Positions 1 to 58,313 of a stretch of DNA of 64,000 nucleotides are shown here, in pieces. Under the pieces are notes generated by a model that was not told the DNA's origin, made no database searches, and saw nothing but the letters and a program-made list of their open reading frames with translations. The position numbers were made by a program, and so were the translations under genes. Positions within the stretch are counted from its first letter, which is position 1. The number at the start of each line of letters is the position of its first letter. This DNA is from Balanoglossus misakiensis (taxonomy: Eukaryota > Animalia > Hemichordata): positions 124,001 to 188,000 of the forward strand of contig JBECUI020000033.1 of NCBI GenBank assembly GCA_040954595.2. The letters run 5' to 3'.

Positions 1-674
1 TGGTTAGTAGATTCTTCTGTTTGAGTTTCGTATTGGGACCGGTTTTATGTTGGTTAGTAGATTCTTCTGTTTGAGTTTCGTATTGAGACCGGTTTTCTGT
101 TGGTTAGTAGATTCTTCTGTTTGAGTTCCGTATTGAGACCGGTTTTCTGTTGGTTAGTAGATTCTTCTGTTTGAGTTCCGTATTGGGCCGGTTTTCTGTT
201 GGTCAGTAGATTCTTCTGTTTGAGTTTCGTATTGAGACCGGTTTTATGTTGGTTAGTAGATTCTTCTGTTTGAGTTTCGTATTGAGACCGGTTTTCTGTT
301 GGTCAGTAGATTCTTCTGTTTGAGTTCCGTATTGGGACCGGTTTTCTGTTGGTTAGTAGATTCTTCTGTTTGAGTTCCGTATTGGGCCGGTTTTATATTG
401 GTCAGTAGATTCTTCTGTTTAAGTTCCGTATTGAGACCGGTTTTCTGTTGGTTAGTAGATTCTTCTGTTTGAGTTTCGTATTGGGCCGGTTTTCTGTTGG
501 TTAGTAGATTCTTCTGTTTGAGTTTCGTATTGGGCCGGTTTTCTGTTGGTTAGTAGATTCTTCTGTTTGAGTTCCGTATTGAGACCGGTTTTCTGTTGGT
601 TAGTAGATTCTTCTGTTTGAGTTCCGTATTGAGACCGGTTTTCTGTTGGTCGGTAGATTCTTCTGTTTGAGTTT
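1..674. repeat. Tandem array A1, 49-50 bp unit, 14 core copies, truncated by the window start
   Basis: Unit TGGTTAGTAGATTCTTCTGTTTGAGTT(T/C)CGTATTG(A/G)G(A/-)CCGGTTTT(C/A)TGT repeats head-to-tail. Cores at about 9, 59, 109, 159, 208, 258, 308, 358, 407, 457, 506, 555, 605, 655. No unique spacers. Confidence 0.98.
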
Positions 675-691
675 TTTAGCAGGCCTGAATT

Positions 692-1870
692 TGATGTGTC
701 AAAAATCTTGTATACCTTCAGAATACCAATGTTGAAAGAGCCCAACTTACTTTTTGCTGTATCACTTTGAGTAAGTCAATATCCAGATACTCTTCTGTAC
801 ATCATGTTGTTCCCATGATGTCCCTGAGCTTGGCAGTTGGTAGCAAGACAGCAGAATTTCGTTTGGGGAAATCTTTCAACAATCCTGGTTCTGCTGTTTG
901 ATTTCTTTCAAGGGATGATTGCTCCTGATCAGAAGCCAATGTTCCGGAAAAAAATTCCTATACTCAAGAGTTTCGTGGATGTAGTTTTTCACCATGTCAG
1001 CAGTCTTGGGAAGTTTCATATCGTGGAATTTTTTCACCCAGCTGATCCTTCTCAAAAGCAGCCTCTCTATCTTCTTGCGCATGTATTCCCTACAACATCC
1101 GATAATTCCACCGACTTCCCGTGGGGAACTACCGAGAAGACATTCCGGTAATAGTGTCCAACGCTATCGAATACATTGTGCTTTTAGGAGACACTCTTCG
1201 ATGGATTCGACAATCCTATGCATTGTCGGTTATGAAGAGCTGATTATCTTTGAGCCCTCGGTTTTTCAGGTGGCAAAAAATTGCTCCATCCAGCTTCATC
1301 TTCCTTTGTACCTTCAACAAGGACTAAAACACTGCGATATCCGCTTTTTAAAACGCCTATCGCTACTAGAACGCTTACATTCCGCATCTTTCCAGCCCAT
1401 GGGCTCTTAGGGACTGTCCCATCCAAATACAGTTTTCATTGATGGATTTACTCTCCAAGTATCGATTTTCTCCTAGATCTCCTGGTTCCTATTGTTCATT
1501 GTTCCATAGCACTTACCTTGGTTCCCCCAAGAGGCTCGGTAATATCTTCAACTCACCAAACACATCAGTATCCAGCTTCCGGGTGTGATGTCCGCCAGGA
1601 ATATCTTCTCGTGCATCTGTGGCCTATATTTTCCAACCTGGAGTCCGCTTCGAGCATGGCTATTCAAGGTTTCTTCTACGGTTTTCTTCAACCATTGGTC
1701 TTACCTTGAGCGGTAGGAGACCTTCATCGATCTGTATGAACTTTCCGCTTGGGGTCTTCTCTGGCTTCATTCTTCCTCTGAGTGAATAATATTGGGTTTG
1801 ATTCCATTTCAATATTGGAGAATAGTTTTTAATGTCATTTCAAAATGTACGCAGTTTCCTAGGCCTTATC
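692..1870 (-). mobile_element. Degenerate IS256-family insertion sequence (transposase pseudogene)
   Basis: Fragments MDGTVPKSPWAGKMRNVSVLVAIGV...GTKEDEAGWSNFL and KLPKTADMVKNYIHETL...FPEHW resemble Mutator/IS256 transposases. DNA is similar to the copy at 42584-43806. Left end GATGTGTCAAAAATCTTG resembles that copy's terminal repeat. Boundaries approximate. Confidence 0.8.
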
Positions 1871-1989
1871 ATTCTTCCAGAAGGACTTTGAAGTCGATCC
1901 TCTTGCCTTTTGGGAAAAGAAAAACACTGTGACGGATGTACTTGAAATATGTATAGGTAATCCTCTACCCGTAGTTTTTAAAGCTTTTC

Positions 1990-2510
1990 CCAGTGTTGCT
2001 CTTGGTCGCCCGAATATGCCCAGTATCCAGACATAAGAAGATAGTGCTTTCTTCCATGAGCGGTCTCGGATATCTTAGTCGTTCTCTATCAGAGAGTCCA
2101 GGTAGGGAAGGCAAACGGTCCTTAGATTATTCGACGGCGATTCCGAAACCCAGTCCAGTGCTTTGCCGAACTGTTTTAGCTGGGGAAGTGTGTCGCCTTT
2201 CGCTACGACTTCGCCCTAAGCTGTTCCGCCAAGTGGAAGAACTTTTCTATTTTTTTCAAGCTCGTCTCGCAATATTTTCCGTAGATGAGAAGATTTCCAG
2301 TAGAGACTCCGGTAAGATTGATCCGTTCGTGGTGAGAAGCTCCTCCAGTTCTTGTTTTTTGTTCCTTCACTTTGTCAGGTTCACGTCAAAGATTTCAATT
2401 CCGGTGTAAGCACAGCCCTGGACAAAGAGAAGAACCTTCTTTCAGTCCAGAAGAGTCGAGTAGTAGACTTCTTCTACCGACGTGACAGTCACCTGGTGAG
2501 TCAACTCATC
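1990..2510 (-). pseudogene. Possible IS66-type transposase relic
   Basis: Manual minus-strand translation gives QGCAYTGIEIFDV and KQFGKALDW, loosely like the IS66 GCWAHxRRKF and LGKAxxY motifs. Heavily disrupted. Confidence 0.25.
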
Positions 2511-3008
2511 ACTCCACCGTTTAACAATGATTCTTAATCCTTACCCGCCCTATTCGGGTAGAAAAAAACTTCATGCTAATAAAAAGTCCCCCCTTCCTCA
2601 TGATGGAAAACCTACATGCAGAAGGAATACCTCCAAAATTCTTGAAACTGTATAAGATCTCTTCTTTCCCTTAAAAGCTTAGCTCAGGATAAAGACGATC
2701 GAATTCAAAAGACTCTAAAAACGCGGAGAGTTCATGAAGATGTTAACTTCATATCGAATACAAAAAACGACCGAATTGGGTCTAATGTTTTTGTGAACAG
2801 GCCAAGCATACTTGTAAAATCACGAAACTATTTGTTGAAATTCATCATAATTCTCACGAGTAATTCCAAAAAATTATAATAATACAAAAGTTAGAATCCC
2901 ATTTTTCTACTAAACTATTATTTTTGTTTCTCTCTTGACTTACTCTTAAATATTAGATAAACAAGGTATAACGTTCACATTATAGTAAAAAGCATAAGGA
3001 TATTTATC

Positions 3009-4561
3009 ATGACAAAAAAACTGAAATCAATTATTGGATTGCCCAAGAGTGAATTTGATCTTTTTGTCGCCGTAATGAAACTGAACTTAAAATATCATTG
3101 AGTGAAGCACGATTGATTCCAATGACAAAACCGGGCGATGAAATGACTTTAACATCAATCTTTCTATCAACACTCAGACTTATAAGGGAATTCAAACAGG
3201 ATTTCCTATCGGGGGCTAATATCTCATCAAGAGGACAGTTATATGTTTATACCGAAGTTTCCTTTATAGAAACAAACGTTCAGGAAAAAGACCTTTACCG
3301 TATCGACGGATTAATTCTTGTTGTTATTGCCGGCATAATAAAAGATGCTGCTTTTTTAGAAATGAAGAATAAAAACAGGGAATTAGAAATAGAGCAAATT
3401 GAAGAATATATCAACATCGCAAAAATATACGGCGTACCGAAATTAATTACCGTATCAAATCAATTTGTTTCAGATCCAAGACAATGCCCCTTGAATATAA
3501 AAAAGAAGGGAAAAATAGATCTATATCATTTCTCATGGTCTTATATATTAACTATCGCTCATATCCTTTTACACGAAAATGATCATAATATTGAAGACGA
3601 CGACCAAATAGAAATAATGCGGGAAGTAGTTAATTATTTTGAAGATCCAAAATCCGGAATTTTCGGCTTTACCCAAATGAAACCCGGTTGGAAGAAGGTT
3701 GTTGAAAAAATAGAAAAGGGCATAAAGCTTAAAAAGGGGGAACCTGAAATAAATGAAGCCGTTGAAAGCTGGGTGCAGGAAGAAAGAGATATGGCCTTAA
3801 TTCTAAGCCGCCAAATCGGTTTGCTTGTTCGCTCTGGGGAGAAAAGGTATAACACTGATCTAAGACAAAGAATTGATAACGATATAAACTTATTAATCGA
3901 AAAAAAGCTGCTTAAGTCCGTCCTGAAAGTTGGAGGGGCCGCTTCGGATATTCATATAAGAATGAATTTCATGAAGAAGAACGTTACAATGTCGTTAGAT
4001 ATTGCAGCTCCTTTTTCCAAAGACATGAAGATTACAGGCCGACGTCAGATAAAATGGTTAAAAAACCAGATTGACCGCTGTAGTAAGAGGGATGAAAACG
4101 CTTATATAGCGATGAAAAAAAATCTTATAATTGAAATCATTATTAAAAATAAAAAACATAAGGAAACTGTACCTATAGATGAAATTCATTTGTTGTATGA
4201 ACATGTTAAGAACCAAGAAATTAAATATTTTAGAATCAATTACGTAAACAATCTAGGACGAAATTTTGCATCGATTCAAAAGGTAGTAAAAATACTAGAG
4301 GGCATGCTTCTCAAGTTCTACGGTACAATTGTTCAGAATATTAAGAAATGGGAACCACCAGCTCCCAAAATGAAAGAGTCCTTGTTGTCTCTTAGTGCTT
4401 CTAATCCGTTAAATCAAAAGAAAACAAATAAATCGATGGAAGATGTTGTTGAAAATCCTAAAGAGGATTTAACTCCTTCGTCTAACAATAGGCCTCAGTT
4501 ATCAATAGCCGAGCCTTCTTCGATTCTTCCAGAGGTTTCTTTGAAAGATGATGAGAAATAG
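3009..4561 (+). CDS. Uncharacterised PD-(D/E)xK nuclease-fold protein (5' end frameshifted)
   Basis: 487-aa ORF 3098-4561 with TEVSF...RIDG...FLEMK...QIEEY...LITVSN, i.e. D...ExK plus QxxxY. An ATG at 3009 after AAGGA opens a short frame that stops at about 3100, suggesting one frameshift. AT-rich relative to core genes. Confidence 0.65.
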
Positions 4562-4796
4562 CGACTTTCTTCTTAGGAGAATCTATGACTTGGAAGAAAA
4601 TTATCTATTGGGATTCTGCTTAATGCTCGACATCTAATCAACCTGTAAATCCTATAGAATTTTAAATTATCTTCAAAGTGGAAAGAATTTTCATCGTTAA
4701 ATATATCCAACAAGGTGTTTCCTGATCTGTTCAGACACAAGAAACCTGCGCAAAATCAGGTGATTTGTTTCATACGCAGCAAGATGAGCTGAATTG

Positions 4797-6010
4797 ATAA
4801 CGTCTAATAACTTGCGCAATTCCATTTACAAACTAAAAAAAGACTTCAAGCTGACGATTGATTATTAATTACAACAATCACCTCAGAGGAGAACCATATG
4901 AATGATAACATTATCAAACTAAATGAGGGTAAAGTCAAAGATTCTTTAGGTAATTTTCTAAGAAAACTGTAGAAGAAACATTGAATGCTACGTTATTGGC
5001 TGAAACTAAACAATTATGTAAAGCTCAAAAACATGAAGGTAATGCAGAACGACAAGAATATCGTTCTGGTCCTTACGATACTACCTTTCTGAGAAAATAC
5101 GGTGAAGTAAAACTACATGCTTCTAAACTAAAAAAGTTACTTTTGAAACCGCCATCATTGAACGATACAGGCGTAGAGAAATCTCGGTTGAAGAAGCCAT
5201 GGTGGAGAGGTATCAAGCTAGTGTTTCAGTCCGCAGAGTTGGCGATATAACTAAAGCCCTAAGGGAATAGAAGTCCTCCAAGGAACCATGAGTAATTTCA
5301 ATAAGAAAATATATGAAGAGATTGGAAAATGGAGAAAATTTTTATTGGATAAACACTATTGCATCATTGGATAGCATAAGAATGCAGCGGTCATGGTGTG
5401 GTTAAGTTAAGAATATCTCTGTTTTGGTGGCCATTGGAGTCAATCAGGACGGGTTTAAGGAGATACTCGAGGTTGCTGGAACCAAGGAAGATAAGGACAG
5501 CTGGCAACTATTTGGAAGGTATTTAAGGGAGCAAGGACTTTCAGAAGTCGATCTCTTTATTGCTGATAAGTTTTTATGGTTGGTAAAATCTATTCCTGAT
5601 TTCTTCCACAATGCAAAAGGGTAGAGATGTATCGTTCACTTCTGCAGGAATGTCTTCAGCATGGTCCCCCATGGAAGCATCAAACATGGTCAAAACTGGA
5701 TCGATGGAAACCTTCTTTTATTATCGTTGTCCTTAAGAACAATTGGAGAAGAATCAGAACAAGTAGTGGATTGGAAAGGATAATGAAAGAGATTAGAAGG
5801 AGGATAAGGGTAATCGTAATCATTTCCTGCATCGAGCAGCAACATTGATGTTTGTTGCTGCTCGATGCAGGCATATTGCTGGATCTTGCTGAAGTTAAAT
5901 GAAAGTAACTGAATATGGATTTACTCATAGGTTATCATAGGGAAGAAAACGTAACATCAACTGATATCTTCAAATTGAGGAAAGTGAAATTTCCGAATAA
6001 GACTAATGAA
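4797..6010 (+). mobile_element. Degenerate IS256-family insertion sequence
   Basis: Fragments VEETLNATLLAETKQLCKAQKHE...YRSG, VAIGVNQDGFKEILEVAGTKEDKDSW, WRRIRTSSGLERIMKEIRRR. Many stops and frameshifts. Left end GATAACGTCTAATAACTTGCGC is IR-like. Right end approximate. Confidence 0.85.
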
Positions 6011-6609
6011 TGCCTCCCTTAGGTTTTATTCAGCACACTCTAACGCTTGCGCTTGCCTGTAGCGAGTAAAGAGGATAAATTTCGATGCCCCGTTCACAAG
6101 AGCGCTCAATTTACTGGAAAGAGGGAACTCCAGAACCCTCTACCTTCCTTTATAGTTAATAGTCTGAGAGTGTATCTACGATTTAGAGATTTGGTTCAAG
6201 CTCAAGGTATGAAGGGTTCTAAAAACACAGCGTAGTGGCCTTACGTGAGTCTTGTGAGTTCCTGAATAACGCAGAGATTGAGCCAAGGGATGTTCTAAGC
6301 CAGTTTAATGAAGACAGATTGAAGGTTCTATGAAAATTCTTATGTTATCTTCTGTGTTTGAAAAAGGTGTCCTTATCTGGGAGAACTGTCCGAATTATAG
6401 AGCGAGTCAGTTTGTTTTTTCGTCTTACAAGGTGATAAATTCGCAAAAATTTTCATTATGAATGATAACCTGAGACAGTTGAAAATCCTCTCCAACAGTT
6501 TGAAAAAGGATAAATTCCGATGAATTGGTCTAAAAATCGGTGGAATTAAACATGCCACCGAGCATCTTTGGTACGCTGTGAATTGCATCATATCCAACAA
6601 AGGGGGCAC

Positions 6610-7246
6610 ATTGAGACCGGTTTTCTGTTGGTTAGTAGATTCTTCTGTTTGAGTTCCGTATTGGACCGGTTTTATGTTGGTTAGTAGATTCTTCTGTTTG
6701 AGTTTCGTATTGGGCCGGTTTTATGTTGGTTAGTAGATTCTTCTGTTTGAGTTTCGTATTGGGCCGGTTTTCTGTTGGTTAGTAGATTCTTCTGTTTGAG
6801 TTTCGTATTGAGACCGGTTTTCTGTTGGTTAGTAGATTCTTCTGTTTGAGTTCCGTATTGAGACCGGTTTTCTGTTGGTTAGTAGATTCTTCTGTTTGAG
6901 TTCCGTATTGAGACCGGTTTTCTGTTGGTTAGTAGATTCTTCTGTTTGAGTTCCGTATTGGGCCGGTTTTCTGTTGGTTAGTAGATTCTTCTGTTTGAGT
7001 TCCGTATTGAGACCGGTTTTCTGTTGGTTAGTAGATTCTTCTGTTTGAGTTCCGTATTGAGACCGGTTTTCTGTTGGTTAGTAGATTCTTCTGTTTGAGT
7101 TCCGTATTGGGCCGGTTTTCTGTTGGTTAGTAGATTCTTCTGTTTGAGTTTCGTATTGAGACCGGTTTTATGTTGGTTAGTAGATTCTTCTGTTTAAGTT
7201 CCGTATTGGGCCGGTTTTATGTTGGTTAGTAGATTCTTCTGTTCAT
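6610..7246. repeat. Tandem array A2, same 49-50 bp unit as A1, 13 core copies
   Basis: Cores at about 6637, 6686, 6735, 6784, 6834, 6884, 6934, 6983, 7033, 7083, 7132, 7182, 7231. The last copy ends AGATTCTTCTGTTCAT, matching the dispersed 22-bp motif. Confidence 0.98.
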
Positions 7247-7323
7247 TCTCCTCTTCCCTGTTTCTCGAAAAGTAGCTATAATGAAAATATAAACCAAACA
7301 CTAAGAAATGGAAAAAAAAGAAA

Positions 7324-8076
7324 TTGGATAATCTTACTGATAGGGAAAAGAAAATTATAGAATTATTGGCCGATAACCCTTTAACCACACTTAATGAGAT
7401 TAGTCAGATTTTGAAGGTCTCAGTAGTGACTGTCCGTAGCGACTTTATCGGACTGGAAGAAAAAGGCTATCTAATCCGAACACGCGGTGGGGCCCTGTCT
7501 ACATTTCACCCTGAAATCCTGTCCCGTCAAAAAAGGCTTCCTGAAGTAAAACTTCGTATTGCTCGTGCCGCAGCGTCTCTTGTAGAGGATGGAGATGCGA
7601 TTATGATTGTTGCTGGCACCACCACGGCCTTGATTGCCCGCTACCTTCTTGGCAGGCGTGATGTGAAGATAATTAGCAATTCTACCCTCATCCTTCCCTA
7701 TGTCAGGACCAACCCTAGTCTTCGGCTGACCTTTGTGGGAGGGAATTTCCAACCAGTTTCGGAATCCATGGGAGGTCCTGCAGCCATTGAACAATTGGAG
7801 CAGTTCTATGCGAAGACAGCCTTTATCGGGACCGACGGTTTCTCAATAGAAAATGGGCTTACATCCCAGGCGGTAGAGGCGGTGGAGATAATACGGACAA
7901 TGAATCGTCGATCAGACCATACGATACTGGTGGCTGATTCGAGCAAATGGGGGAGGCCTGGTTTTGTCCGAATCCTATCGCTCAAAGCGGTAGGGACCCT
8001 GATTACCGATCAGGGACTACCCAACGAAGCCCAAAAAGAGTTGGAATCCCTAGGTTTGAAAGTTTTAATTGCCTGA
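7324..8076 (+). CDS. DeoR/GlpR family transcriptional regulator
   Basis: N-terminal HTH VSVVTVRSDFIGLEEKGYLIRTRGGA and C-terminal sugar-phosphate sensor domain (AGTTT, FIGTDG, LVADSSKW). Confidence 0.93.
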   Translation: MDNLTDREKKIIELLADNPLTTLNEISQILKVSVVTVRSDFIGLEEKGYLIRTRGGALSTFHPEILSRQKRLPEVKLRIARAAASLVEDGDAIMIVAGTTTALIARYLLGRRDVKIISNSTLILPYVRTNPSLRLTFVGGNFQPVSESMGGPAAIEQLEQFYAKTAFIGTDGFSIENGLTSQAVEAVEIIRTMNRRSDHTILVADSSKWGRPGFVRILSLKAVGTLITDQGLPNEAQKELESLGLKVLIA

Positions 8077-8092
8077 GTTTGAGGAGATTGTT

Positions 8093-9501
8093 ATGGCAAC
8101 GAAGATTCTGATGCCCCGGAAGGGGAATACGGTGGAATCTTGTGTGATTCTGGAGTGGAAAAAAAAGTAGGAGATAAGGTTCTCCCCGGGGATGTGCTTT
8201 GCGAGGCGGAGACCGATAAGACAGTTATTGAGGTGGAATCCGATGTAGAAGGGACCTTACTAGCACAATTATGGAGTGAAGGAGATGAGGTTCCTGTCCT
8301 AAGCGCCATTGCCTTGGTGGGAGAGGCTGGAGAATATATAGCTTCCCCAACCGGGACAGCAAAAGGAAATTTGGAAGTAAGCAATTCGGGGGGGGATAAT
8401 GTTTCTGCTGAGAACGAAGATCTTCCTACCGATTCACACATCTCCCCGGGGCGGCGGGAATTTGTCAGAGGAGTTGTCCCTCCGATGAAATCCGGGGAAG
8501 CTCTTTTTGAAACAAACAACTCTGGAATTTCACCCCGGGCCAGAAGTTTTGCTGCCCGAGAGGGCTTGAACGAACTTCCTGCTAAGGGAAGTGGTCCTGG
8601 GGGTCGGGTCATTGAGCGGGATATGCAGGAAATTCTGGTCGGAAGGGCGCCTGTGAGCCCGGCGGCTAAGGCCCTTGGTGGCAACTTCCCCTCCCGGGGA
8701 TCGGGCCTTGGAGGACGTATACTTCTTGCGGATCGTTTAACTGCCGAAGGCTCAGAAGATTCTGCTGCTCCCTCTGGACCGGATAGAAGGGAAAATTTCC
8801 CCGGACCTGTGGAAGTGCTTCCGATCAAAGGAATACGCAAACTCATCGCCTCGCGAATGCGGGCCTCTCTGGCCGAGACGGCCCAGCTGACTTTGCATAC
8901 CAGCGCTCCTGCAAAGGAACTGCTCGCCTGGCGAGCTGCATTCAAGACTTCTGCCGAAGCTCTGGCCTTGGGAGAGGTATCGCTCAACGATATTTTAATG
9001 TGGGTCACTGCCCGTATCTTGCCGAGGTACAGAGATCTCAATGCTACCTTTCACGGCACTGAACTGCGCCGCTACCACCACGTGCACTTAGGTTTTGCTG
9101 TAGATACTCCCAAAGGTCTGATGGTCCCGGTAATACCCTATGCTGATCTTTTGGGACTGGGAGCCTTGTCCAGAGAGGCCCGTCATCTGGCGTCGGCCTG
9201 TCGGGAAGGGAAAGCAGCACCGGAGAATTTAGAAGGAGCAAGTTTCACCCTCAGCAATTTGGGCTCTTATGGTATTGAGAGTTTTACTCCTGTACTCAAT
9301 CTTCCCCAGGTGGCCATCCTTGGTGTGGGAAGCATCCGCAACTGCCCCGTAGAAACTCCCACAGGTGTTGGCATCGAGAAACGTTTAGGACTTTCTCTGA
9401 CCATCGATCATCAGGCCATAGACGGCGCTCCTGGAGCTCAATTCCTACAAGAAATGAATTCTGTTTTGGCCCAACCTGCTCTGGCCGCGGCTATGGTTTA
9501 A
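8093..9501 (+). CDS. 2-oxoacid dehydrogenase E2 (dihydrolipoamide acyltransferase), frameshift at A8 run 8159-8166
   Basis: GAGGAG-ATG at 8093 gives MATKILMPRKGNTVESCVILEWKK, which joins ORF 8140-9501 if one A is added. Lipoyl motif ETDKT, E3-binding GSGPGGR, catalytic DHQAIDG. Confidence 0.9.
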
Positions 9502-9510
9502 GGAGGAACG

Positions 9511-15797: not shown

Positions 15798-17063
15798 ATG
15801 AGAACAACCGCTGTGCGAATGTATGGAAAAAGCGATCTACGACTTGAGGAATTCGAACTTCCTCCTCTGAAGTCAGACGAAATTTTGGCCGAAGTTGTTT
15901 CTGATAGCATCTGCATGAGTTCCTATAAGGCAGCCAAGCAGGGCAGTGATCACAAGCGAGTGCCTGAGGACATTGCCAGGAATCCCGTGATCCTTGGACA
16001 TGAATTCTGTGGTACGATTCTTAGAGTCGGCAGCAAATGGCAGGATAAATATCAACCTGGCAATCGATTCACCATCCAGCCTGCCTTGAACTACCGGGGA
16101 AGTCTTGATGCCCCAGGCTACTCCTACCGCTGGATAGGAGGCAGTGCCACCCACATTGTCATTCCCAACGAAGTCATGGAAATGGGCTGTCTGCTCAACT
16201 ATGAGCAGGATGCCTTCTATTTTGGAAGTTTATCCGAACCTATGAGCTGCATTGTCGGTGCTTTCCGGGCGGCCTTTCACATTCCTCAAGGGACCTACAA
16301 TCACCAAATGGGCATCAGAAAAGGAGGAAAGCTAGCCATTATGGCTGGTGCAGGTCCCATGGGCCTGGGGGCCATTGATCTTGCCCTCCATGGAGATACA
16401 CGTCCTCGGCTTCTTGTCGTCACCGACGTTGATGCCTCGCGTCTAGCCCGAGCCGAAGAGCTCTTTCCTGTGGAAAAGGCAGCAAAAGACGGCATTAAAC
16501 TTGATTACGTCAATACAGCCTCCATAGCAGATTCAACCGAATTTCTGAAGGCAATGGCTGGTGAGGGTTATGATGATATTATTGTCATGGCACCAGTCGA
16601 GGTTTTGGTGGAACAAGCAGGCAGGCTTTTGGCCAAGGATGGTTGCTTGAATTTCTTTGCTGGTCCCACTGACCCTGATTTTTCGGCAAAAATCAATTTC
16701 TATGACATTCATTATGCCTTCCATCACATAGTGGGTACTAGTGGTGGCAACACTGAAGATATGAATATCTCTCTGGAACTCATGAAGGAAGGCCGTGTCG
16801 ATCCATCGGTAATGATCACCCATATAGGGGGCATCGATGCCGTGGTGGATACTGTCTTGAACTTACCAAAGTTTTCCGGGGGAAAGAAACTTATTTACAC
16901 CCACACCACCATGCCCCTGACTGCCCTCACTGACTTTGCTGAAAAGGGAAAAAAAGATCCTTTCTTTGCCACATTAGCGGAAATTATCGCAGCCAATAAG
17001 GGCATATGGAATTTTGAGGCCGAGAAATATCTGCTGAACAATGTCCAGAGCATCGTAAAATAG
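15798..17063 (+). CDS. Zinc-binding dehydrogenase, L-sorbose-1-phosphate reductase-like
   Basis: SDSICMSSYK, ILGHEF, GAGPMG and GGKKLIY are characteristic of SorE-like MDR enzymes. Confidence 0.82.
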   Translation: MRTTAVRMYGKSDLRLEEFELPPLKSDEILAEVVSDSICMSSYKAAKQGSDHKRVPEDIARNPVILGHEFCGTILRVGSKWQDKYQPGNRFTIQPALNYRGSLDAPGYSYRWIGGSATHIVIPNEVMEMGCLLNYEQDAFYFGSLSEPMSCIVGAFRAAFHIPQGTYNHQMGIRKGGKLAIMAGAGPMGLGAIDLALHGDTRPRLLVVTDVDASRLARAEELFPVEKAAKDGIKLDYVNTASIADSTEFLKAMAGEGYDDIIVMAPVEVLVEQAGRLLAKDGCLNFFAGPTDPDFSAKINFYDIHYAFHHIVGTSGGNTEDMNISLELMKEGRVDPSVMITHIGGIDAVVDTVLNLPKFSGGKKLIYTHTTMPLTALTDFAEKGKKDPFFATLAEIIAANKGIWNFEAEKYLLNNVQSIVK

Positions 17064-17119
17064 AGGAAAAACTGAAGAAAGGCCCAGGTACTAGACCCCC
17101 CCATTAGTGTTGATTGATG

Positions 17120-17141
17120 AAAAGGAGATTCTTCTGTTCAT
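17120..17141 (-). repeat. Dispersed 22-bp motif (perfect copy)
   Basis: AAAAGGAGATTCTTCTGTTCAT on +, the reverse complement of ATGAACAGAAGAATCTCCTTTT. Confidence 0.95.
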
Positions 17142-17316
17142 GTCATTGAAACACCGCTAAGGCCTCAGAATTTCCAGGCTGCGCAGTCATTCCCGAATGA
17201 ATGGTTATACTTGAAAATTTTGCCCTATTCCGGTTTATCTTTGTCTCGGGCAGCCCTCACGAGAAGGTTATCTCCTGACAAAGCCGATATTCATACCTAA
17301 CTGATGTGGATGGGTA

Positions 17317-17338
17317 AAAAGGAGATTCTTCTGTTCAT
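17317..17338 (-). repeat. Dispersed 22-bp motif (perfect copy)
   Basis: AAAAGGAGATTCTTCTGTTCAT, 197 bp after the previous copy. Both continue G(T/C)CATT. Confidence 0.95.
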
Positions 17339-17554
17339 GCCATTAACAAGCTCCCCAAAGCACTGGTCTCCAGCAGGGAAGGCCCTCTGAGAAGCTGAAG
17401 TCAGACCATGATAAACGCAACTAAATTGGCTCTAAAAAATTCCTAAGGTTGTCAAAGTCCTGGTGCAGCTGTTATTCTTTTAAGCAGTAAAGCTCTTTTG
17501 CCCATGATGTAGGTAGACCATTAAAGAGTTAAGCAATCAAAAAGAGGAGAAAAA

Positions 17555-18577
17555 ATGCTCTATCTTAACTTCCCCACTTGGCTGAAGCCGGAAATTATTC
17601 CCGGACTTCCTCTTCGCTGGTATGGTCTCATGTATCTTGTGGCCTTCATGATAGCCTTTTTCCTATTTCGTTACCAAGTCAAAGAAGTCAAAGCCCCCAT
17701 TAATGATGACGATATTTCTTCTTATTTTTTCTGGTGTGTTGTAGGAGTTCTAGTCGGTGCGCGCTTGGTCTCTACTCTCCTTTACGACACCTCAGGATAT
17801 TATTGGCGCCAACCCTGGTTGATTTTCTGGCCTTTCCAGAACGGTAGATTTGTTGGTTTCTCAGGAATGAGCTACCATGGAGGACTTGCCGGAGCCATAA
17901 TAGCCTGTGTTGCCCACTCATTAATAAAAAAGCACAAAGTTGGTGAATGGGGAGACTGGGCTTTGGCTTCACTTCCCCTAGGCTATACCTTTGGTCGGCT
18001 GGGCAACTTTATTAATGGGGAACTTTGGGGACGGGTTACCACTCGTCCATGGGGGATGATTTTTCCCCACGCCCCTGCTCTACCTCTAGCGGATCCTCGA
18101 GTGGCTGAAGCTGCAGAAAAAATCGGTATGGATGTAATGGGAATGGAATTCATTAACCTTCCCCGGCATCCTTCGCAGCTATATGAGGCATTTTTAGAGG
18201 GGGTGCTCCTCTGGTTATTCCTTTGGTTCATTATCCGGAAGATCAAGGAAAAAAAGGGTTACTTCCACGGTTTTGTGTCCATTTGGTACCTTATAGGCTA
18301 TGCCATTGCCCGTATTTTCGTAGAATACTTTCGGGAACCTGCATTAGAGCATGTTCATTCCTTTTCCAGAGAAACTGAAACCATTGCCACCTATTTTTTT
18401 GAGGGTTTTCGCTATTACACCACGGGGCAGGCATTATCCTTCCTCATGCTGGTTGCTGCGTTTATAATAGGCTTAGTTTTTTCCAAGCTAGAGAAGAAAA
18501 AGAAGCTGGAAGAATTGGACACCACACATGGCCCCAAGGCAAAAGATTGGCGTAAAATCCGAAAAAAAGTCAAGTAA
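17555..18577 (+). CDS. lgt: Prolipoprotein diacylglyceryl transferase
   Basis: RWYGLMY, GMSYHGG, GRLGNFINGELWGR, HPSQLYE, RIFVEYFR. Confidence 0.96.
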   Translation: MLYLNFPTWLKPEIIPGLPLRWYGLMYLVAFMIAFFLFRYQVKEVKAPINDDDISSYFFWCVVGVLVGARLVSTLLYDTSGYYWRQPWLIFWPFQNGRFVGFSGMSYHGGLAGAIIACVAHSLIKKHKVGEWGDWALASLPLGYTFGRLGNFINGELWGRVTTRPWGMIFPHAPALPLADPRVAEAAEKIGMDVMGMEFINLPRHPSQLYEAFLEGVLLWLFLWFIIRKIKEKKGYFHGFVSIWYLIGYAIARIFVEYFREPALEHVHSFSRETETIATYFFEGFRYYTTGQALSFLMLVAAFIIGLVFSKLEKKKKLEELDTTHGPKAKDWRKIRKKVK

Positions 18578-25104: not shown

Positions 25105-26463
25105 TTATGGGGCCACTGCTGTAAACCTGGCGCTGAGCACATTACCTGCATTATTAGAGGCCACAGCGTAAAAGCTATAAGTCGTAGAGGAAGTAAGACC
25201 AGATACCGAAGTTTCGGTGGTCATTATCCAACCGCTGTTGTCGGCAATAATAGCATCATAATCAGCAGCATCCTCATCGACTGCCTTATAGGAATAAGCA
25301 ACCGTCGCTGCTGGATCAGCACCTGTTACAGTCCCCGGAGTGATCGTGATCTCTCCAACATTTGCAGACGCAGCCGCAGACGGTGCGGTCCCCCAAGTAC
25401 CTGCAGCAGCAGCTTCAATCGTGGCATCGACCTTGGCAGAGAGAACTGAATCTACAACGTTAATTAACAGACCGTAGATGGCATAACTCCCGCCAGCTCC
25501 ATCCACTAGCATATAGGTATTGGCATCCTCTCCCGGCATGAGCACCGCCCAGCCTTTGTTACGTCAACAAGGTCAGCAGGATCCGTAACGTCCTCACCAC
25601 CTTTCTTATAGTAGAAAGTAGCGTCGCTTCTGGATCACCCGCTAGGAATGTGGTACCCGGCGTAACGGTGATCGTTTAACTGACCTTTTACAGTAGTATC
25701 TGTTGCCGGAAAGTTCAAGCCATCCCACTGTGCTGCGGTACCTGCCCCAACCGCTGAAGTTAACTTATCGCTAAGAACCTTAGCTCCATCATTTGTGGCC
25801 ACAGCATAAATAGTGTAATCATCCCCCATCGCCTGCCGCGAGAGTTACTGTAAGGTCGGTGAAGTGAGTCCAGCCTTTGGTTACGTCAACAAGGTCAGCA
25901 GGATCCGTAACGTCCTCACCATCTTTCTTATAATAGTAAGTAATTACCGGGGGCCGGGGTGCCATCAGCTGCTCCAGCTGTTACCGTGAACTCTAAAATA
26001 TCACCAGTCGAGACTGTAGGCTGCGTGGTCCAACTTGGGTTAACACCTAGGGGCATTACTTCAGCAGTAACCGCAGCACTGAGCACGTTACCAAGAGAAT
26101 TCGAAGCCACACCGTAAATAGTATACATTCCAGGATCGAGATCTGTTACTGTCACGGTGAAGGCTGAACCTGTGTCATCCGCTACGCCAACAACTTCTGT
26201 CCATCCGTTATCAACAAAAGCATAATCTCCTGTATTAGGAGTGTCTGTTGGGGCTATTTGTAATAAAATTTTACAGACAGCGAAGTTCCCGCCAAATTGT
26301 TTACACTTATAACTAACTCACCAGCGGCGCTGGAAGTCGCCCCCAGCACATCTGTACCCTCTGGTGGGCCAGGCTGCACCAATAGTGGTTGTAGTCGTCA
26401 CTACACAGGAGAGAGCTAACATACCTGCCAGCAAGCAACAACTAAAATTTGTACTGTTTTCAT
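25105..26463 (-). pseudogene. Fragmented repeat-containing surface lipoprotein (Fn3-like modules)
   Basis: GGAGG-ATG at 26463, lipobox-like LALSC after a frameshift. Fragments 25928-26155, 25635-25829 and 25105-25545 share Y(T/S)(I/F)Y(G/A)VA(S/T)NxxGxVLS. A ~72-bp direct repeat lies at about 25548 and 25870. Confidence 0.7.
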
Positions 26464-26591
26464 ATAAAACCTCCATTCATATAAATAACCCCTTAATTCT
26501 GTTTTGTCAATACTTTTTTGCAACTTGACAACTTCTCAACACAAAGCACTCAAGATATACTGTCAACAGCATATCTTCCCGACTCGAGACC

Positions 26592-28499: not shown

Positions 28500-29153
28500 T
28501 CACTCCCATTGGTATTGTGGGTGATAGGAGTCACCTCTACCAAGCATGTAAGACCATTTACAACAGATCAGTCTTAACTGGTAAAAAAGATTCTTCTGTT
28601 CGTTTGTCTCCCAAGAAAGAAACACTCGGGCTATGGGGAATTTTTTCCTGAGAGCTTTAAGAACGGTCAGAATTTCCATTAACTGAAGAATCAGATCTCG
28701 AAGGATGCGATAAGGCCCCACTCTTTGTTTAATCATTTTATGAACTTTCAAAACCAATCCAACTGCTGCTGCACAATGCCTTTTGGCTAGTTCTTCCAAC
28801 AGTACCCAGCCAATCTTGCAAAGTCGCAGTTTGAGAGTTCCTGGATTGGTTCCTAATTTCTGAGCCCATGTAGACAGGCTGATGTCCTTCTGGGCATAGG
28901 ACAGGATGGAATCGTAGGGAATTTCTACCTTTTCATAATAGGAAACTAGAAAAGAGCTTGTAGAAAAAGATTTTTCACAAGAACAGCATAAGTAGTTCCA
29001 AACTATCCCATGTCTGTTGTTCTTTTTAGTTCCCCGGAATCTGAACCAATGGGGCCTCTGGGGACGAGCATGATTTACGCATTCCGAATAAGGACAGAAT
29101 TCCGGCTCTGGTATTGCTTGTCTGCAATTTTTTTTTGCCTTGATACAAAACAT
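28500..29153 (-). pseudogene. Zinc-ribbon/HTH protein resembling an IS1/IS1595-like transposase N-terminus
   Basis: FCPYSEC...G...YLCCSCEKSFS zinc ribbon followed by HTH-like SLSTWAQKLGTNPGTLKLRL. No DDE domain recognised. Confidence 0.5.
28588..28601 (-). repeat. Dispersed motif, 14-bp core copy
   Basis: AGATTCTTCTGTTC, preceded by GGTAAAA, similar to the flank of the copy at 17317. Confidence 0.75.
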
Positions 29154-30608: not shown

Positions 30609-33137
30609 CTAGCAAGTAGGTAGGCTAAGTTTTATGAAAGAGGGTAGGGGAGAAGTTTCATGCCTGGTTGTGTCTTTTCTTTTCCACAATTCCCAGAGTA
30701 GTCCCAATCCCCAGCAGGCTCCCATTAAAAGGGGGAACCAATCTCCCCATCTTTGATAAAGAGTAGGGGGGGCTTCCGGGTCGGGAAGATGTACTTCTCC
30801 ACTTATCCAGCCAGGTTCGTAGGGTGGGGGTGAGCCTGTTGGATGCGCCCTCCAGCATCGGCGATAAGAGTCCATCCTGAACTGGTCGCCCTGACAAGGG
30901 GACGGCGGTTCTCGACGGTGCGGAACAGGGCATGAACAGCGTGCTGGTAGCCTTCCTGAGGAGTAACAGCCCAATAGTCGTTACTCAGATTGACAATCAC
31001 TTGGGCTCCAGCAGTAACAAATCGGCGTACGTGGTTAGGGAAGACGTCCTCAAAACAGATGGGGGTGGAAAAGCGAAATCCCGGCCCCTGGTAGACGGTA
31101 TGTTCTGTTCCAGGAGTCCACTGGGTGGAGGCAAAGTTTTGCAAGAGAGCATCAATTTTGGGTAGAGTTTTTTTATAGGGGAAATTTTCGGTAAAGGGGA
31201 CTAAAAGAATTTTGTAGTAGTAGAATCGGTCTTCTGGGCCTTCACGGCCTGGCATTAGAAGCATGGAGGCATTTTGTATCCTTTTTATATCTTCTTGATT
31301 TTCATCCTTTTCAAAAAAATGGTCCTGGGTACCAGTGACCAAAGCCACCTGCCAGGATTCCTGCCAGGAAAAAAGTTTATTGACCAGTTTCCTTCGGTTC
31401 CTTTCTTCCATGGAGGGTTGAAGCCAGAATCTGATATCCGGAGGGAAGCCTCCCTCGGGCCAGGCGATTAGATCTTGGGGCCCCGATGCTAGGGCTTGGT
31501 CTGAGAGTCTGATAAGTTCATCAAGACTTTGCTGGTAATCGTGTTTCCTAGGATCAGTGTTTTGCTGAATAGCGGCGATACGTACCGTCGGGGAGTTTTG
31601 TTGATAGCGGTCCAACTTCTTCAGGGCCAGGCTCCCCTGAACCGAGATAAGGACCACAAGTCCTGCTGTTACGGTCGCAGGAATCCAGTTTCTGAGAGAC
31701 TTTTGGGTTTTGGGGGTTCTTTTGAAGTATTTTTCTATCCCTACGGTCAATGCTCCTCCAGACAAGTGGCACATGAAGGTAACTCCCCAGACACCCGAGA
31801 AGGAGGCTAGTTGTATGAAAGGGGTAAAAGCATACTGGCTTACTCCCAAGGCTCCCCAGGGATAGGCAAGAAAACCTAGAGTTCGGGTCCATTCAAAAAA
31901 AGTCCACAAGGCTGCTGCCAGAATCCACCATCCAGACCCTCCCCGTGAAGGCTGATTAGCAGAAGAATAAGAAATGGGGCAAAAATAATCAGGTTTAAAA
32001 TGGTGGTAAAAGGTAGGGACACGTAGTTAAAGGTTCCCTGCCAGTAGTTGATCAGAAGAATCTGCAATCCAGTAAAGGTAAAGGCATAGAAAATTCCTTT
32101 TCCCGGGTAACTGCGCGTAGGGCCAGATAGAGGGGGACCGTGGCGAACCAGGCTAGAGGGGCTAGGCCTTGGGACCGCAGAAAACTTGGGGGGGCCAGGG
32201 CATACAGTAATGCTGCCAGAGCAATCCAGCCCAGAGCGGGGGCTTCCAGGAGAATCTTCCTTTTCCCAACGAACCATTCTTTTTTAATCCGGTGGAAAAC
32301 AGACCTTCCCCACCCATAGAGAGAGAGAAGCTGCAAAGGAAGAAAGCGCAGCATAGCGATCTTCCTTTCGGTGCTGGTATCAGCAAGATCTAGCCCCCCG
32401 TTGGTCGCTACAAAAAGCTGGACGTAGGGTAAATCACCATTAATGGCATAAATAAAGGCAAAAAGGTGGAGTAGGGTTCCCACAGAGATAAGGACTTCCA
32501 ATAAGAAGGATGGGAACTTTCCTTTCAACAGAAAGAGGGCCAGAAGAAGCTCTCCCCCCAGCCAAAGAAGGTAAAGGTAGTTAGCCAAGGTCATTCCCGC
32601 CGAGGATGCAGAAAGAATTTCGGGATAATCAAGAGCTTCTCCAAGTTTGTTTCTGCCTGCTAGGAAGTTCTCTAGGGTTCCCGTATCATCGCTCCAGCGG
32701 CTGCTAATCTCCCCCGATGCCAGGTCGAGAATGTTTAAGGAAACCCTGAATGTACCTTCCCAATTGCTGATTCTCCCGCGGATAATACTTTCCTGTCCTA
32801 ATTCTCTACCCAATTCTAGGACTTCATCGGTGGAGAGAATAACGTTATTGAAGATATCTAGTCGGCTTTGGGTATCTATGTACCAGTTTTCTATGAATGA
32901 ACGGGGGGAGAGTTTAAAAGCACGGCTGGAACTTATTTCCTGTTCAATTTTCTTTTCCAGGGCCCTTTTTTGGATTTCATCTAAGGAAGGGGCATAGATG
33001 GGCATTAAAACAATCGAAGGCTTGCGAATAAAAGTCCATGGTCCCCAAAAGCTGAGAAAAATCTCGACCACAACAAGTAGAACTACGAGACCTCCACCAA
33101 TGTGATAAGTTCGGTGAAGTCTCTGCAAGCTTATCAT
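30609..33137 (-). CDS. lnt: Apolipoprotein N-acyltransferase with long N-terminal extension, split by 3 frameshifts
   Basis: Overlapping ORFs 32052-33137, 31876-32277, 30803-31909 and 30609-30974 read consecutively. Lnt motifs FEWTRTLGFLAYPW, WPEG, YYKILLVPFTE, ICFED, NLSND, TLYQRWGDW. Confidence 0.88.
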
Positions 33138-33454
33138 GCATGTAAGTATACCTTAGGCCAGAAGGATGCTCTAGAAAAAAATCTATTCTGGTAATAAGGA
33201 AGTAGGTGAGGATTCCTTTGGTAGACAGAATTTCCTTTTAAGTACAGTTCTCTCATATAATCCTTAACGAAGAGTGGGAATGAAGATGTGTTAAATTAAG
33301 GAATCAAAAATAAAATTTCTGCCGAAACCCAGCGAAAGAATCATGCTCCCATTTATTCAGGTTCTTTTCGCAGGTTCTCTAGGAAGTTTTGATTGGATTT
33401 TTTTAGCTTTTCAAATAATCGGGGTGATAATTCTTTTAACGGTAAATAATTCAA

Positions 33455-33476
33455 ATGAACAGAAGAATCTCCTTTT
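33455..33476 (+). repeat. Dispersed 22-bp motif (perfect copy)
   Basis: ATGAACAGAAGAATCTCCTTTT, intergenic between lnt and tRNA-Arg. Confidence 0.95.
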
Positions 33477-33742
33477 CTTTTTTCCTCCCCATTTTCCAAC
33501 CACGGTTCCCTCTATTCTCTAGTCCCACAAACTCATTGAACTATACCCCCCCCTCCTGGAAATGCAAAAAATACACCAGTTGCTAGACCTCATGTCTTGA
33601 AACGGTAACAAAGTTGCTGGCAAACTTTCTATCTAGGGTAAACTCCCGACGGACACTAAGGTTAACAACAAAAGGATGGGGGGGGGACTACTTTGTCTTA
33701 TAAATTTAAGAGTAGTCAAGTCTGTTCAGGCATGCTAGTTTT

Positions 33743-42182: not shown

Positions 42183-42387
42183 GGTAAAAGGTTTGAATGT
42201 TTCACCTTATAGCATAACCCCCACCTTTTAATTCAGATATACCCTGAACTCCATGATTGTTGCGTTAGAGCAGCGGCGAAGGGCATTGGTAGAATAGGCA
42301 CTTGGAACTTTTATAGGTTTTTGAAGCATTATGGAGAGTATAATTCGATGGGTATAGGAATAAATGTTTTTATGATAAGTAATTAAA

Positions 42388-42409
42388 ATGAACAGAAGAA
42401 TCTACTTTT
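42388..42409 (+). repeat. Dispersed 22-bp motif (1 mismatch)
   Basis: ATGAACAGAAGAATCTACTTTT. The TCTACT variant is the same as in the 50-bp arrays. Confidence 0.92.
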
Positions 42410-42583
42410 CATTTTCCCCCCACTAAATTAGAAATAGATAAGCTAATCCAATAACGTGCAACACCTACCACCTTATCGAGTTAACGTGATTAGAAGGACA
42501 AATCCTTATACCAAACACTGATTTTGGGAAGACGATTGAGGTTCTGCACACAGTTTATACAAGAGGGCGATCCAAAGTTATCA

Positions 42584-47110: not shown

Positions 47111-47151
47111 TTAGCTGGAATCTTAGTATGGTTTAGCTGGTTTTAGGAGAA

Positions 47152-49483: not shown

Positions 49484-49591
49484 ACATCCTTCGGGAATCT
49501 CGTTTTGAAATTAACCTGTATGTGAGAAAGACTTCCCGGTGTGCCGTGTGGGGACCGGGGAGTGGACCCGTTTGGGAACTGGAAGAGGGTA

Positions 49592-51280: not shown

Positions 51281-51284
51281 TCTT

Positions 51285-52349: not shown

Positions 52350-52391
52350 AGCAGTCTCCCTTGTTTTTCTCCAAAGACGGGGGGAAGCTGC

Positions 52392-55983: not shown

Positions 55984-56060
55984 ATAATAAAGTATATAAG
56001 GATTGCGTGGAGCTGCCCACCCTAGGTACACTTCACAATAGCCTTTTTCCGAAATAGATT

Positions 56061-56248
56061 ATTCCGAAAATCCACCCAGGAAATGTCTGTAAACCTTCAT
56101 AATGCCGACGTTGTCAAGCTTCCAGCAGATCAACTCCAACCATGCTCGTGTGGTCATTCAGCCCCGCTCGGACATAGCCACCCTCACAACACGATGACAG
56201 GCCTTGGAAGTAATACCAAGACTACGCCGTTGTGAAAAAAGAGTCTCC
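56061..56248 (-). pseudogene. Decayed duplicate of the comM 3' end
   Basis: ETLFSQRRSLGITSKACHRVVRVAMS versus ComM ETLFVEAARSLGLSSRACHSVLRVAMT. DNA is colinear with 59239-59428 down to ATTCCGAAAATCCA. Confidence 0.85.
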
Positions 56249-56804
56249 TTGAGATAGGGAGAATAGTCGCTGTAGGTTGGGGAGAAGTCTATCTTGCTGA
56301 TACTGAAGATGAGGACTTTGATGTTATTGAAGGAATTTGAAAAACCGGGGTGATTTGTCAACATTTGTTAAGGATTGCGAGAGCCGCAGAAACTGCCTCA
56401 CATCGAGCAGCATCGGAAACTTCAAGGGTTCCCCACCGTGAAGTTCCAAAAGCGGTGAGTCTTTCCTTCTGAATTTTCTATGATCCAGAGATATTCTTTC
56501 AGGCAACAAAGAAACTTCAGGACGAATGGCTCATAAGAATCAAGAACTTCGATCCAATACACGCCTAGCATATAATCCAATGCAGAGATTGGAATAATAT
56601 CCACGAAATGGCTTCAGGAGAAACTCCTATTATAAAACTTTCTCCTTTTGATACCAATTCCCGCTTTTCTCCTAAGGTCTTACACAACTCCGATAAGTGC
56701 ATCACTTAAGACAACCCCAAGCAAATTTCCTTGATTTTTAGAACAATTTTCAGTATTTAGTATAAGTCATGGTAGAAATTCAGCCCACTTAAGGAAGAGC
56801 CTTT

Positions 56805-57305
56805 ATGCAAAATAAACTATTACCTAAGCAGGCGGACAATAACTACAGCTTTCACAAGGCCATTCTGTATATATTCGGGGCGATGACATTGCTTACCATA
56901 GGCAGAAGCTTGGCCCACATTTTTCTACCTGACGGTGGTGCCAACTCCATAGCCACCATCATCAACTTCGACGGGAATCCTGACCCCGATACTGTCATCT
57001 ATAATATTTTTGCCCTCTGGGGCCTGGCCCAGCTGGCTATGGGGGTAGTGTATGCGATTGTACTTTTTCGCTATAAAAATCTGATTCCCCTGATGTGGGT
57101 TTTCATTCTGGTGGAGTACCTCCTGAGGGTATTCATAGGAAAGGCTCTTAAACCTATGGGCGAGGCCTATCTTCTCGGAACGGCTCCAGGTGAAGTGGGA
57201 AATTATATTTTTGTTCCTCTGGCTTTGATCATGATTATTTGGTCACGTGCAGGAAAACCCAGGGTACCCCGATCCCCCCCGAGCCCCCATGCGTCAAACT
57301 CTTAG
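56805..57305 (+). CDS. Hypothetical membrane protein; C-terminus runs into the repeat array
   Basis: 166 aa with about 4 TM segments. The tail PRSPPSPHASNS is encoded by array sequence. Confidence 0.75.
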   Translation: MQNKLLPKQADNNYSFHKAILYIFGAMTLLTIGRSLAHIFLPDGGANSIATIINFDGNPDPDTVIYNIFALWGLAQLAMGVVYAIVLFRYKNLIPLMWVFILVEYLLRVFIGKALKPMGEAYLLGTAPGEVGNYIFVPLALIMIIWSRAGKPRVPRSPPSPHASNS

Positions 57306-58313
57306 ATGAACAGAAGAATCTCCTTTTTCAAGGGGATATCACAGGCATAGGTAGAATAGCCGCCCAGGGCACCCCGAGCCCCTATGCGTCAAACCCTTAG
57401 ATGAACAGAAGAATCTCCTTTTTCAAGTAAATATCACAGGCAAAGGTAGCATCCCCCCCGAGCCCCCCCCAGGCCCCCATGCGTCAAACCCTTAAATGAA
57501 CAGAAGAATCTCCATATTCAAGTAAATATCACAGGCAAAGATAGCATCCCCCCCGACCCCCCCCCCAGGCCCCCACGCGTCAAACCCTTAAATGAACAGA
57601 AGAATCTCCATATTCAAGTAAATATCACAGGCAAAGGTAGCATCCCCCCCAAGCCCCCCCCGACCCCCCACGCGTCAAACCCTTAAATGAACAGAAGAAT
57701 CTCCATATTCAAGTAAATATCACAGGCAAAGGTAGCATCCCCCCCAAGCCCCCCCCGAGCCCCCATGCGTCAAACCCTTAAATGAACAGAAGAATCTCCA
57801 TATTCAAGTAAATATCACAGGTAAAGGTAGCATCCCCCCCGGCCCCCCCCAGGCCCCCATGCGTCAAACCCTTAGATGAACAGAAGAATCTCCATATTCA
57901 AGTAAATATCACAGGCAAAGATAGAATCCCCCCCGAGCCCCCCCCCGATCCCCCACGCGTCAAACCCTTAAATGAACAGAAGAATCTCCATATTCAAGTA
58001 AATATCACAGGCAAAGATAGAATCCCCCCCGAGCCCCCCCCCGATCCCCCACGCGTCAAACCCTTAAATGAACAGAAGAATCTCCATATTCAAGTAAATA
58101 TCACAGGCAAAGGTAGCATCCCCCCCGCCCCCCCAGGCCCCCATGCGTCAAACCCTTAAATGAACAGAAGAATCTCCATATTCAAGTAAATATCACAGGC
58201 AAAGGTAGCATCCCCCCCGAGCCCCCCCCAGGCCCCCATGCGTCAAACCCTTAAATGAACAGAAGAATCTCCTTTTTCAAGTAAATATCACAGGCAAAGA
58301 TATCCCCCCCCCC
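57271..58313 (+). repeat. Tandem array B, ~95 bp unit (92-96), 11 copies, poly-C tracts
   Basis: GCGTCAAACCCTTAAATGAACAGAAGAATCTCCATATTCAAGTAAATATCACAGGCAAAGGTAGCAT plus three C-runs. Cores at 57306, 57401, 57496, 57592, 57687, 57782, 57876, 57972, 58068, 58160, 58255. Confidence 0.98.

Follow-up and report, generated by a model that had tools for sequence, protein, structure and literature searches.

An apparently lineage-specific repeat core links single sites to two unrelated minisatellites in a contig of spirochaete-like DNA

How do long non-coding tandem arrays begin in bacteria? The question is raised by a 64,000-nt stretch of contig JBECUI020000033.1 (positions 124,001 to 188,000 of the forward strand; assembly GCA_040954595.2, deposited for the hemichordate Balanoglossus misakiensis), hereafter the window, in which single copies of one short motif, a close direct pair of copies and two mature arrays containing the same motif are seen together. 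An earlier reading made from the letters alone (the sequence-only reading) had proposed that this motif marks an undescribed site-specific DNA system. We find that the repeat core is real and, as far as searched, lineage-specific, and that it links single sites to unrelated minisatellites. In the account that we favor, with a probability of about 0.52, it is the core of an old dispersed repeat that was amplified locally by ordinary slippage and is held constant by a predicted binding partner. The element is likely a variant of known bacterial repeat families, not a demonstrated new system.

The motif can be described in three forms, a 13-bp core, a 22-mer, and an extended 25-bp form. The exact core occurs 43 times in the window, with 14 copies in array A1, 13 in array A2, 11 in array B and five at single sites, and the 22-mer is perfect at 17120(-), 17317(-), 33455(+), 57306, 57401 and 58255(+), with one mismatch at 42388(+). 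All of the coordinates and counts reported by the sequence-only reading (43 cores, 27 of them in the 50-bp arrays and 11 in the 95-bp array) hold. That reading had also allowed that the motif might simply reflect k-mer background, which within the window it does not: 100 dinucleotide shuffles produced no match to the core, and with the arrays masked five sites lie within four mismatches of the 22-mer, compared to none in 20 order-4 Markov simulations, with the core still the most repeated 13-mer in the window.

The single sites are dispersed across the window. Two of them, at 17117..17141 (minus strand, 3' of a dehydrogenase gene) and 17314..17338 (minus strand), are direct copies 197 bp apart; two others, given here with their flanks, are at 33427..33488 (plus strand, motif 33455-33479) and 42360..42421 (plus strand, motif 42388-42412, after mnmE), and a 14-bp core copy at 28588..28601 (minus strand) lies inside the coding sequence of a 217-aa gene. 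The description of the motif as almost always intergenic is generally right, with exceptions in the copy at 28588 and in the first unit of array B, which overlaps the 3' end of the open reading frame (ORF) at 56805-57305. Aligned with one another, the single sites form local subfamilies, with 17120 and 17317 being 88% identical over 40 common bp and 33455 and 42388 being 82% identical over 62 common bp. Similarity among sites fades on both flanks, unlike at the end of an insertion sequence (IS), and this two-sided decay, with no terminal inverted repeats or target duplication, speaks against the possibility that the motif is the end of a known IS or miniature inverted-repeat transposable element (MITE), which the sequence-only reading had named as one way in which it could be wrong.

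The same reading called the motif non-palindromic, and this description has to be corrected. Extended to 25 bp, the motif is an imperfect palindrome with up to 10 of 12 positions paired: 10/12 at 17120 and 42388, 9/12 at 33455, 8/12 at 17317, and 5-7/12 at 28588 and in the array units. With length and center picked post hoc, a shuffled 25-mer reaches 10/12 at a rate of 1.2e-4, and nine of the ~64,000 25-mers in the window do so, two of which are the motif sites 17120 and 42388. The center of the dyad is 7 bp long; the constant part of the motif stops at the end of this center, and the right arm varies. Because hairpins were weak and none folded better than shuffles (12 DNA folds, 10 RNA folds), the double-stranded dyad is more likely than a hairpin to be the relevant form. 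As for orientation, every site left of 29 kb is on the minus strand and every site right of 33 kb is on the plus strand. A single switch of this kind among six independent loci has a chance of ~0.19 (12 of 64 patterns, counted by hand), and GC skew shows no inversion at the switch. Promoter and terminator scans of 16900-17700 gave results near background.

Of the arrays, A1 (1..673, minus strand) consists of 13.5 units of 49-50 bp with 14 core copies and extends past the window start, and A2 (6610..7246, minus strand) consists of 12.8 units with 13 core copies. They are separated by a 5.9-kb segment (674..6609, no strand assigned) that holds two decayed IS256-family transposases (PF00872 at 1247-1435 and 4954-5621) and, between these remnants, a low-GC ORF of 487 aa at 3098-4561. 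A2 and A1 keep register across this segment, with 3-4 bases lost, suggesting that the two are one interrupted array. Array B (57257..58313, plus strand) consists of 11 units of 92-96 bp with 11 core copies. The A unit starts three bases into the motif, the first A2 copy (7222-7246) being the sole A copy with a full left arm, and the boundaries of the B unit fall in C-rich tracts ~45 bp either side of the motif. With one boundary inside the core and the other ~45 bp away from it, arrays A and B have no common cut position.

Outside the core, the units of A and B are unrelated, as had been claimed (local alignment p 0.97 and 0.43 against shuffles; longest common word 13 nt). Also borne out were the lack of unique spacers, with units near-identical throughout, one spacer type per array and recurring point variants, and the observation that edge units are nearer to the single-site consensus than interior units. 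The chance of finding the core in both array types is ~5e-4 as a rough joint probability, and the link between core and arrays is therefore not chance. When complete units were compared (25 of A and 10 of B, leaving out interrupted or terminal partial ones as well as the C-tract of B), none of 26 core columns varied, compared to 20 of 91 others (Fisher p 0.004; 0.05 and 0.07 per array), in a test that is partly circular, with the core defined as the common invariant part.

Contigs from the sequencing run that is the probable source of the window support the 50-bp arrays and provide a view of the motif beyond the window; they come from the same sample and are not independent evidence. In these data, variants of the A unit form separate short contigs at depth 10-28 vs. 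7.6 for unique DNA. A contig of 6,018 bp fits the A1-A2 spacer in length to ~1 bp; as its final unit is not the same as the first A1 unit in the window, it is likely, not certainly, this spacer. A search for contigs overlapping 33380-33540, which drops short matches, found two. The first stops precisely 30 bases inside the 42388 site (42388-42417), and because the contig comes from a k=31 graph, this end implies that the 30-mer at 42388-42417 recurs elsewhere in the sample; its other end falls in a known duplication, a check on the reasoning from the k-mer graph. The second contig (24,140 bp, depth 5.8) has no place in the window and bears one site at each end, both in the same orientation, which gives at least two motif copies outside the window if this contig is of the same genome.

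Judged by its sequence, the window is from a spirochaete-like bacterium. Named top matches to one of its enzymes are mostly Spirochaetales, at up to 73% identity, and in a comparison of its UvrB to 301 genomes the closest was G001 (75%), followed by G298 (73%) and by G092, G002, G212 and G225 (70-71%); none of 10 window proteins is present in the protein cluster collection. The exact 22-mer is absent from the genome, metagenome and viral collections, which shows too that the source genome is not among their entries, and the core has no copies in 2.0 Mb sampled from six near relatives. In two 401-genome samples of Spirochaetota, a one-mismatch match was present in 37 of 401 each time (never more than two per genome), with no enrichment. 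As far as searched, the motif thus seems to be specific to the source lineage. Nineteen control matches in G161, made by the motif pattern in reverse, seem to come from a multi-copy element that has nothing to do with the motif.

Relatives do contain comparable structures built on other words. G002 has a different repeated word upstream of the same deoR gene, with 103 copies genome-wide. At 20 loci chosen around matches to this word, 25 clusters comprise 15 single copies, seven doublets 25 bp apart and three arrays, of 28, 23 and 15 copies at periods of 25, 31 and 25, in which the units begin at the core. Such a series is what one would predict if arrays arise by slippage between two direct cores lying close together, and it makes a simple route from core doublet through slippage to array testable. 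The nicking or recombinase idea of the sequence-only reading finds no parallel in G002, where the arrays appear to start from two nearby direct cores and no RAYT was detected. The G002 element itself is dispersed and ~90 bp long, with internal direct copies of a 13-bp core (L002:2657-2781); further loci are at C1:1708656-1709338, C1:1735433-1736121 and C2:774119-774498.

At a cut-off of period >=20 and >=3.5 copies, under which some of the arrays are probably coding, G002 had 13 arrays in 560 kb (of which 400 kb had been picked around matches), G092 had 5 in 300 kb, G212 had 10 in 460 kb, G225 had 1 in 300 kb, and G298 had none in 40 kb. Array cores in G092 and G212 occur also outside arrays. 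Individual arrays include palindrome-like non-coding units of 48-52 bp in G092 (L209, L250, L253, L257), with no RAYT detected; non-coding units of 47 and 89 bp in G212 (L216, L229, L235, L237); and a 44-bp non-coding unit with up to 59 copies in G002 (L277).

On the explanation that we favor, the core would be the constrained part of a dispersed repeat family that is old and species-specific, and its amplification would have needed no enzyme of its own. Copies would have spread, each with some tens of bases of flank, and later diverged, giving the subfamilies 17120/17317 and 33455/42388. A first duplication would then have occurred by way of either two close direct cores or C-tract microhomologies around one copy; array A fits the direct-core route, because its unit starts inside the core, and array B fits the microhomology route. 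Later slippage or unequal exchange would have expanded the arrays and homogenized their interior units, so that edge units keep the older, consensus-like form. The core would meanwhile have been kept constant, most likely by a protein predicted to recognize the dyad. The earlier suggestion that single sites seed arrays survives in part, in that the arrays do look like local amplification of flanking DNA; its dedicated nicking, rolling-circle or recombinase step is unsupported, because boundaries differ between the array types and no such enzyme is found in the window.

Several observations weigh against this explanation. Slippage alone does not account for the invariant core, or for B units being roughly centered on one site, and the evidence for constraint carries the circularity mentioned above. 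Around the single sites no master element, terminal inverted repeat or target duplication was found. G001, the nearest relative by UvrB, has no arrays in the 340 kb sampled. In the relatives, arrays with a common core mostly show homology along a large part of the unit, but A and B have no more than 13 bp in common, and this difference makes the analogy with relatives imperfect. Finally, the visible region ends at the window, which cuts off both the outer end of array A and the remaining genome.

A cognate enzyme was sought among 49 ORFs, 95 short frames and 24 read-through frames of the window, with no recombinase, HUH nuclease or reverse transcriptase family match and no RAYT found, in agreement with the sequence-only reading. 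A RAYT-type gene (PF01797) is absent in four of five relatives, and the fifth has a 44-aa fragment only. A suspected integrase-like remnant at 6150-6600 had no Pfam support and was not confirmed in 38 genomes; labels of IS1380 and ISAs1 for other remnants had neither Pfam nor genome support. Three decayed IS256-family copies in the window are Pfam-confirmed, suggesting relaxed purging of non-coding DNA, and one of them contains a perfect 19-bp inverted repeat with an 8-bp loop (5826-5871). The 487-aa ORF between two of these remnants has no Pfam or NCBIfam match, and its acidic-lysine motif may point to a nuclease fold. At the A2 junction, the eight bases at 6602-6609 match the opening bases of the inverted repeat in L061/L067, which belong to a spirochaete transposase family, with no match in the remainder and no counterpart at the A1 junction. 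Members of this family (L053-L069) are ~380-430 aa long and multi-copy in Spirochaetia, with 15 matches in G002 and clear terminal inverted repeats; their IS1/ISL3 matches are weak and below cut-off.

Three neighboring genes are in contact with, or close to, the motif. The rare, intact-looking 217-aa gene (28500..29153, minus strand), which has a zinc ribbon and a helical N-terminus and carries the 14-bp core copy, shares its N-terminal ~125 residues alone with the transposase family just described; no match to the catalytic part of that family was found, and its C-terminus is different. Four full-length homologues, at 34-40%, are all on short contigs, and no full-length homologue was found in 401 genomes, metagenome contigs or a word-indexed search, nor did the protein have a Pfam, NCBIfam, plasmid or Foldseek match. 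Its predicted model (pLDDT 69) gave weak helix-turn-helix (HTH)-like matches (Z ~5); its highest VIA Z was 6.6, and values of this size are usual for common arrangements. We regard the protein as a candidate motif binder, nothing more. The gene may encode a domesticated DNA-binding protein. A DeoR-family regulator gene (7324..8076, plus strand), the first gene of a sugar-catabolic operon, lies 78 bp from the first A2 copy; it is conserved in relatives, but the motif is absent upstream of it there (nine homologous loci, best 5-7 mismatches in 16). A conserved hypothetical gene of 166 aa (56805..57305, plus strand) has array-B sequence as its last codons, with the stop codon directly against the first motif; all ten aligned homologues have a shorter tail. 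Further along, a comM-like gene (59236-60819) carries an extended region that is both GC-rich and proline-rich, together with two internal duplications, of 53 and 34 nt, ~1,150 bp apart. At position 8158, contigs of run X1 have one extra A relative to the window, so homopolymer errors may be present and apparent frameshifts, such as those at 25105-26465 and 30803-33137, are not necessarily real.

The dyad invites a reading in which the 25-bp form is where a site-specific recombinase makes its crossover, an idea put forward for dRS3 in NIME, with recombination shuffling flanks and building arrays of core plus spacer. As we read it, the layout of the dyad, in which the invariant part ends with the 7-bp center and the right arm varies, is consistent with such a site, as are the position of the 5.9-kb IS-rich segment, which breaks array A a few bases from the core, and the dRS3/NIME precedent (PMC1797815). 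The arrays are homogeneous, though, not spacer mosaics, the B boundary lies away from the site, the window has neither a recombinase family match nor a confirmed integrase at 6150-6600, and the four viral matches to the 19-mer are all in coding frames, with none to the 22-mer, which together make this reading unlikely. We are similarly doubtful of the wider proposal that an undescribed site-specific system uses the dyad for crossover or binding, capturing adjacent DNA and amplifying it into minisatellites; on this proposal the site is perhaps descended from an attachment core in dtd, and its reader is perhaps a DNA-binding protein domesticated from a transposase, for which the 217-aa product would be an example. 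If the core were an enzyme's site, it would represent a second dRS3-like system, outside Neisseria. Rather unlikely, too, is a mechanism in which a tightly bound protein stalls replication forks, or the site is nicked, and microhomology repair yields small tandem duplications, comparable to Tus/Ter in engineered systems. The B unit does span one site with boundaries on both sides, the strand of the sites changes between 29 and 33 kb, and the two outside copies share an orientation, but the single switch could well be chance without a skew inversion to accompany it, the A boundary is inside the core, and no barrier protein was found. Tus/Ter is reported to induce duplications in yeast reporters, which had pre-existing direct repeats (PMC12151478).

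A different origin is suggested by the best match in a relative, which lies antisense inside the dtd gene (D-aminoacyl-tRNA deacylase) of G132 and agrees at 21 of 22 bases, or at 29 of 30 with the first B unit. On this basis the sites could be decayed dtd fragments, for example attachment relics of an element once located in dtd, that are drifting neutrally. The surroundings of site 33455 (33402-33476, minus strand) are 72% identical to G132 dtd over 75 bp, with likeness in both DNA and peptide, and the flank of this site ranks top of 918 DNA comparisons (z 3.98); against an anchored profile built from 22 other dtd proteins its p is 0.0002, a value that becomes ~0.03 when corrected for the choice of G132 from ~50 matches for its likeness to the core. 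The anchored profile scores only one of nine contexts, unanchored dtd profiles match nothing in the window, 39 other dtd genes match at 5-16 of 22 bases, G132 is distant (UvrB 63%) and without synteny, and the word reads as a common coding phrase on the opposite strand; neutral decay, moreover, does not explain an invariant core. We consider this origin improbable. BLAST searches with site 33455 against phage and plasmid sequences gave chance-level matches only. Still less probable is that the site is an operator for the adjacent DeoR or for the 217-aa transposase-derived protein, with the arrays as decoys or looping sites. Dyad symmetry, the short distance to deoR, and the core copy within a gene whose product has HTH-like matches would fit this idea, but the positions of the sites are inconsistent (after stop codons, within a gene, 230-320 bp from starts), the nine deoR homologues lack a similar upstream word, and the fold matches of the 217-aa protein are of a common kind. 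That the arrays are assembly artefacts is scarcely credible: at least one homopolymer difference separates the window from the contigs and array B is outside the read comparison, but A-unit variants assemble separately at raised depth, and point variants recur among the units.

The old dispersed repeat that we favor can be set beside several known systems, and the earlier statement that no known family fits proved too strong, since Bacillus tandem repeats and Neisseria dRS3/NIME are partly alike. In Bacillus, 52-nt and 20-21-nt tandem repeats form families of different sequence that share species-specific "characteristic signals," for which no mechanism is given and protein binding is proposed, not shown (Subirana and Messeguer 2021, PMC8161180). 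As in the window, several non-coding array families of different sequence have short species-specific words in common; unlike in the window, a single period holds throughout and the signals measure 5-9 nt, whereas here the periods are 49-50 and 92-96 bp and the word, of 13-16 nt, is also free-standing. Non-coding satellite families are likewise reported in Leptospira (PMC6749651), and repeat proliferation is reported in a symbiont that has lost repair genes (PMC3673631). The motif is not mentioned in the literature searched, and searches on bacterial minisatellites, MITEs and dispersed repeats mostly found no papers, with subscription journals outside their scope.

dRS3/NIME is described as combining a single dyad word with >100 spacer families, and a recombinase has been proposed for it (PMC1797815). 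Shared with the window are a short dyad word that is both dispersed and arrayed, unrelated spacer families, and IS insertions in arrays; dRS3 differs in its 6-bp conserved arms and free center, and NIME arrays differ in their mixed spacers; here conservation covers the center and the left arm, a single spacer is repeated in each array, and no cognate recombinase or phage was found for the motif. Repetitive extragenic palindromes (REPs) are reported as lone copies, as doublets in inverted orientation, and as tandem clusters that take in flanking DNA (PMC3116915); their GC-rich palindrome is preceded by a GT(A/G)G head (PMC2817692). The motif resembles REP/REPIN/BIME sequences as an imperfect extragenic palindrome that is single, paired or in tandem with flanks, and its reverse strand has GTAG or GGAG at a variable position. 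It differs in that the tetranucleotide sits within the dyad, next to an AT-rich arm and with no GC-rich palindrome after it, in that folds are no better than shuffles, and in that the close pair and all array copies are direct, with no inverted doublets. A CRISPR is not indicated, with no unique spacers and no Rfam match in the window except a single tRNA, nor is an IS or MITE end, as the motif is unlike the inverted repeats of 11 transposase-family loci and is not at the ends of the window's IS256 copies. The G002 repeat is similar in its single, doublet and long-array forms of one core (periods 25, 31 and 45 bp), its boundary at the core and its copy upstream of deoR, and differs in sequence, in having no dyad (best 8/12), and in that its arrays are parts of one ~90-bp element. 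The architecture of the motif works like that of known families, yet it lacks defining features of REP, NIME, CRISPR and IS ends. It shares with the Bacillus satellites a species-specific word across differing non-coding arrays, and what remains unusual is that its two arrays have only 13 bp in common.

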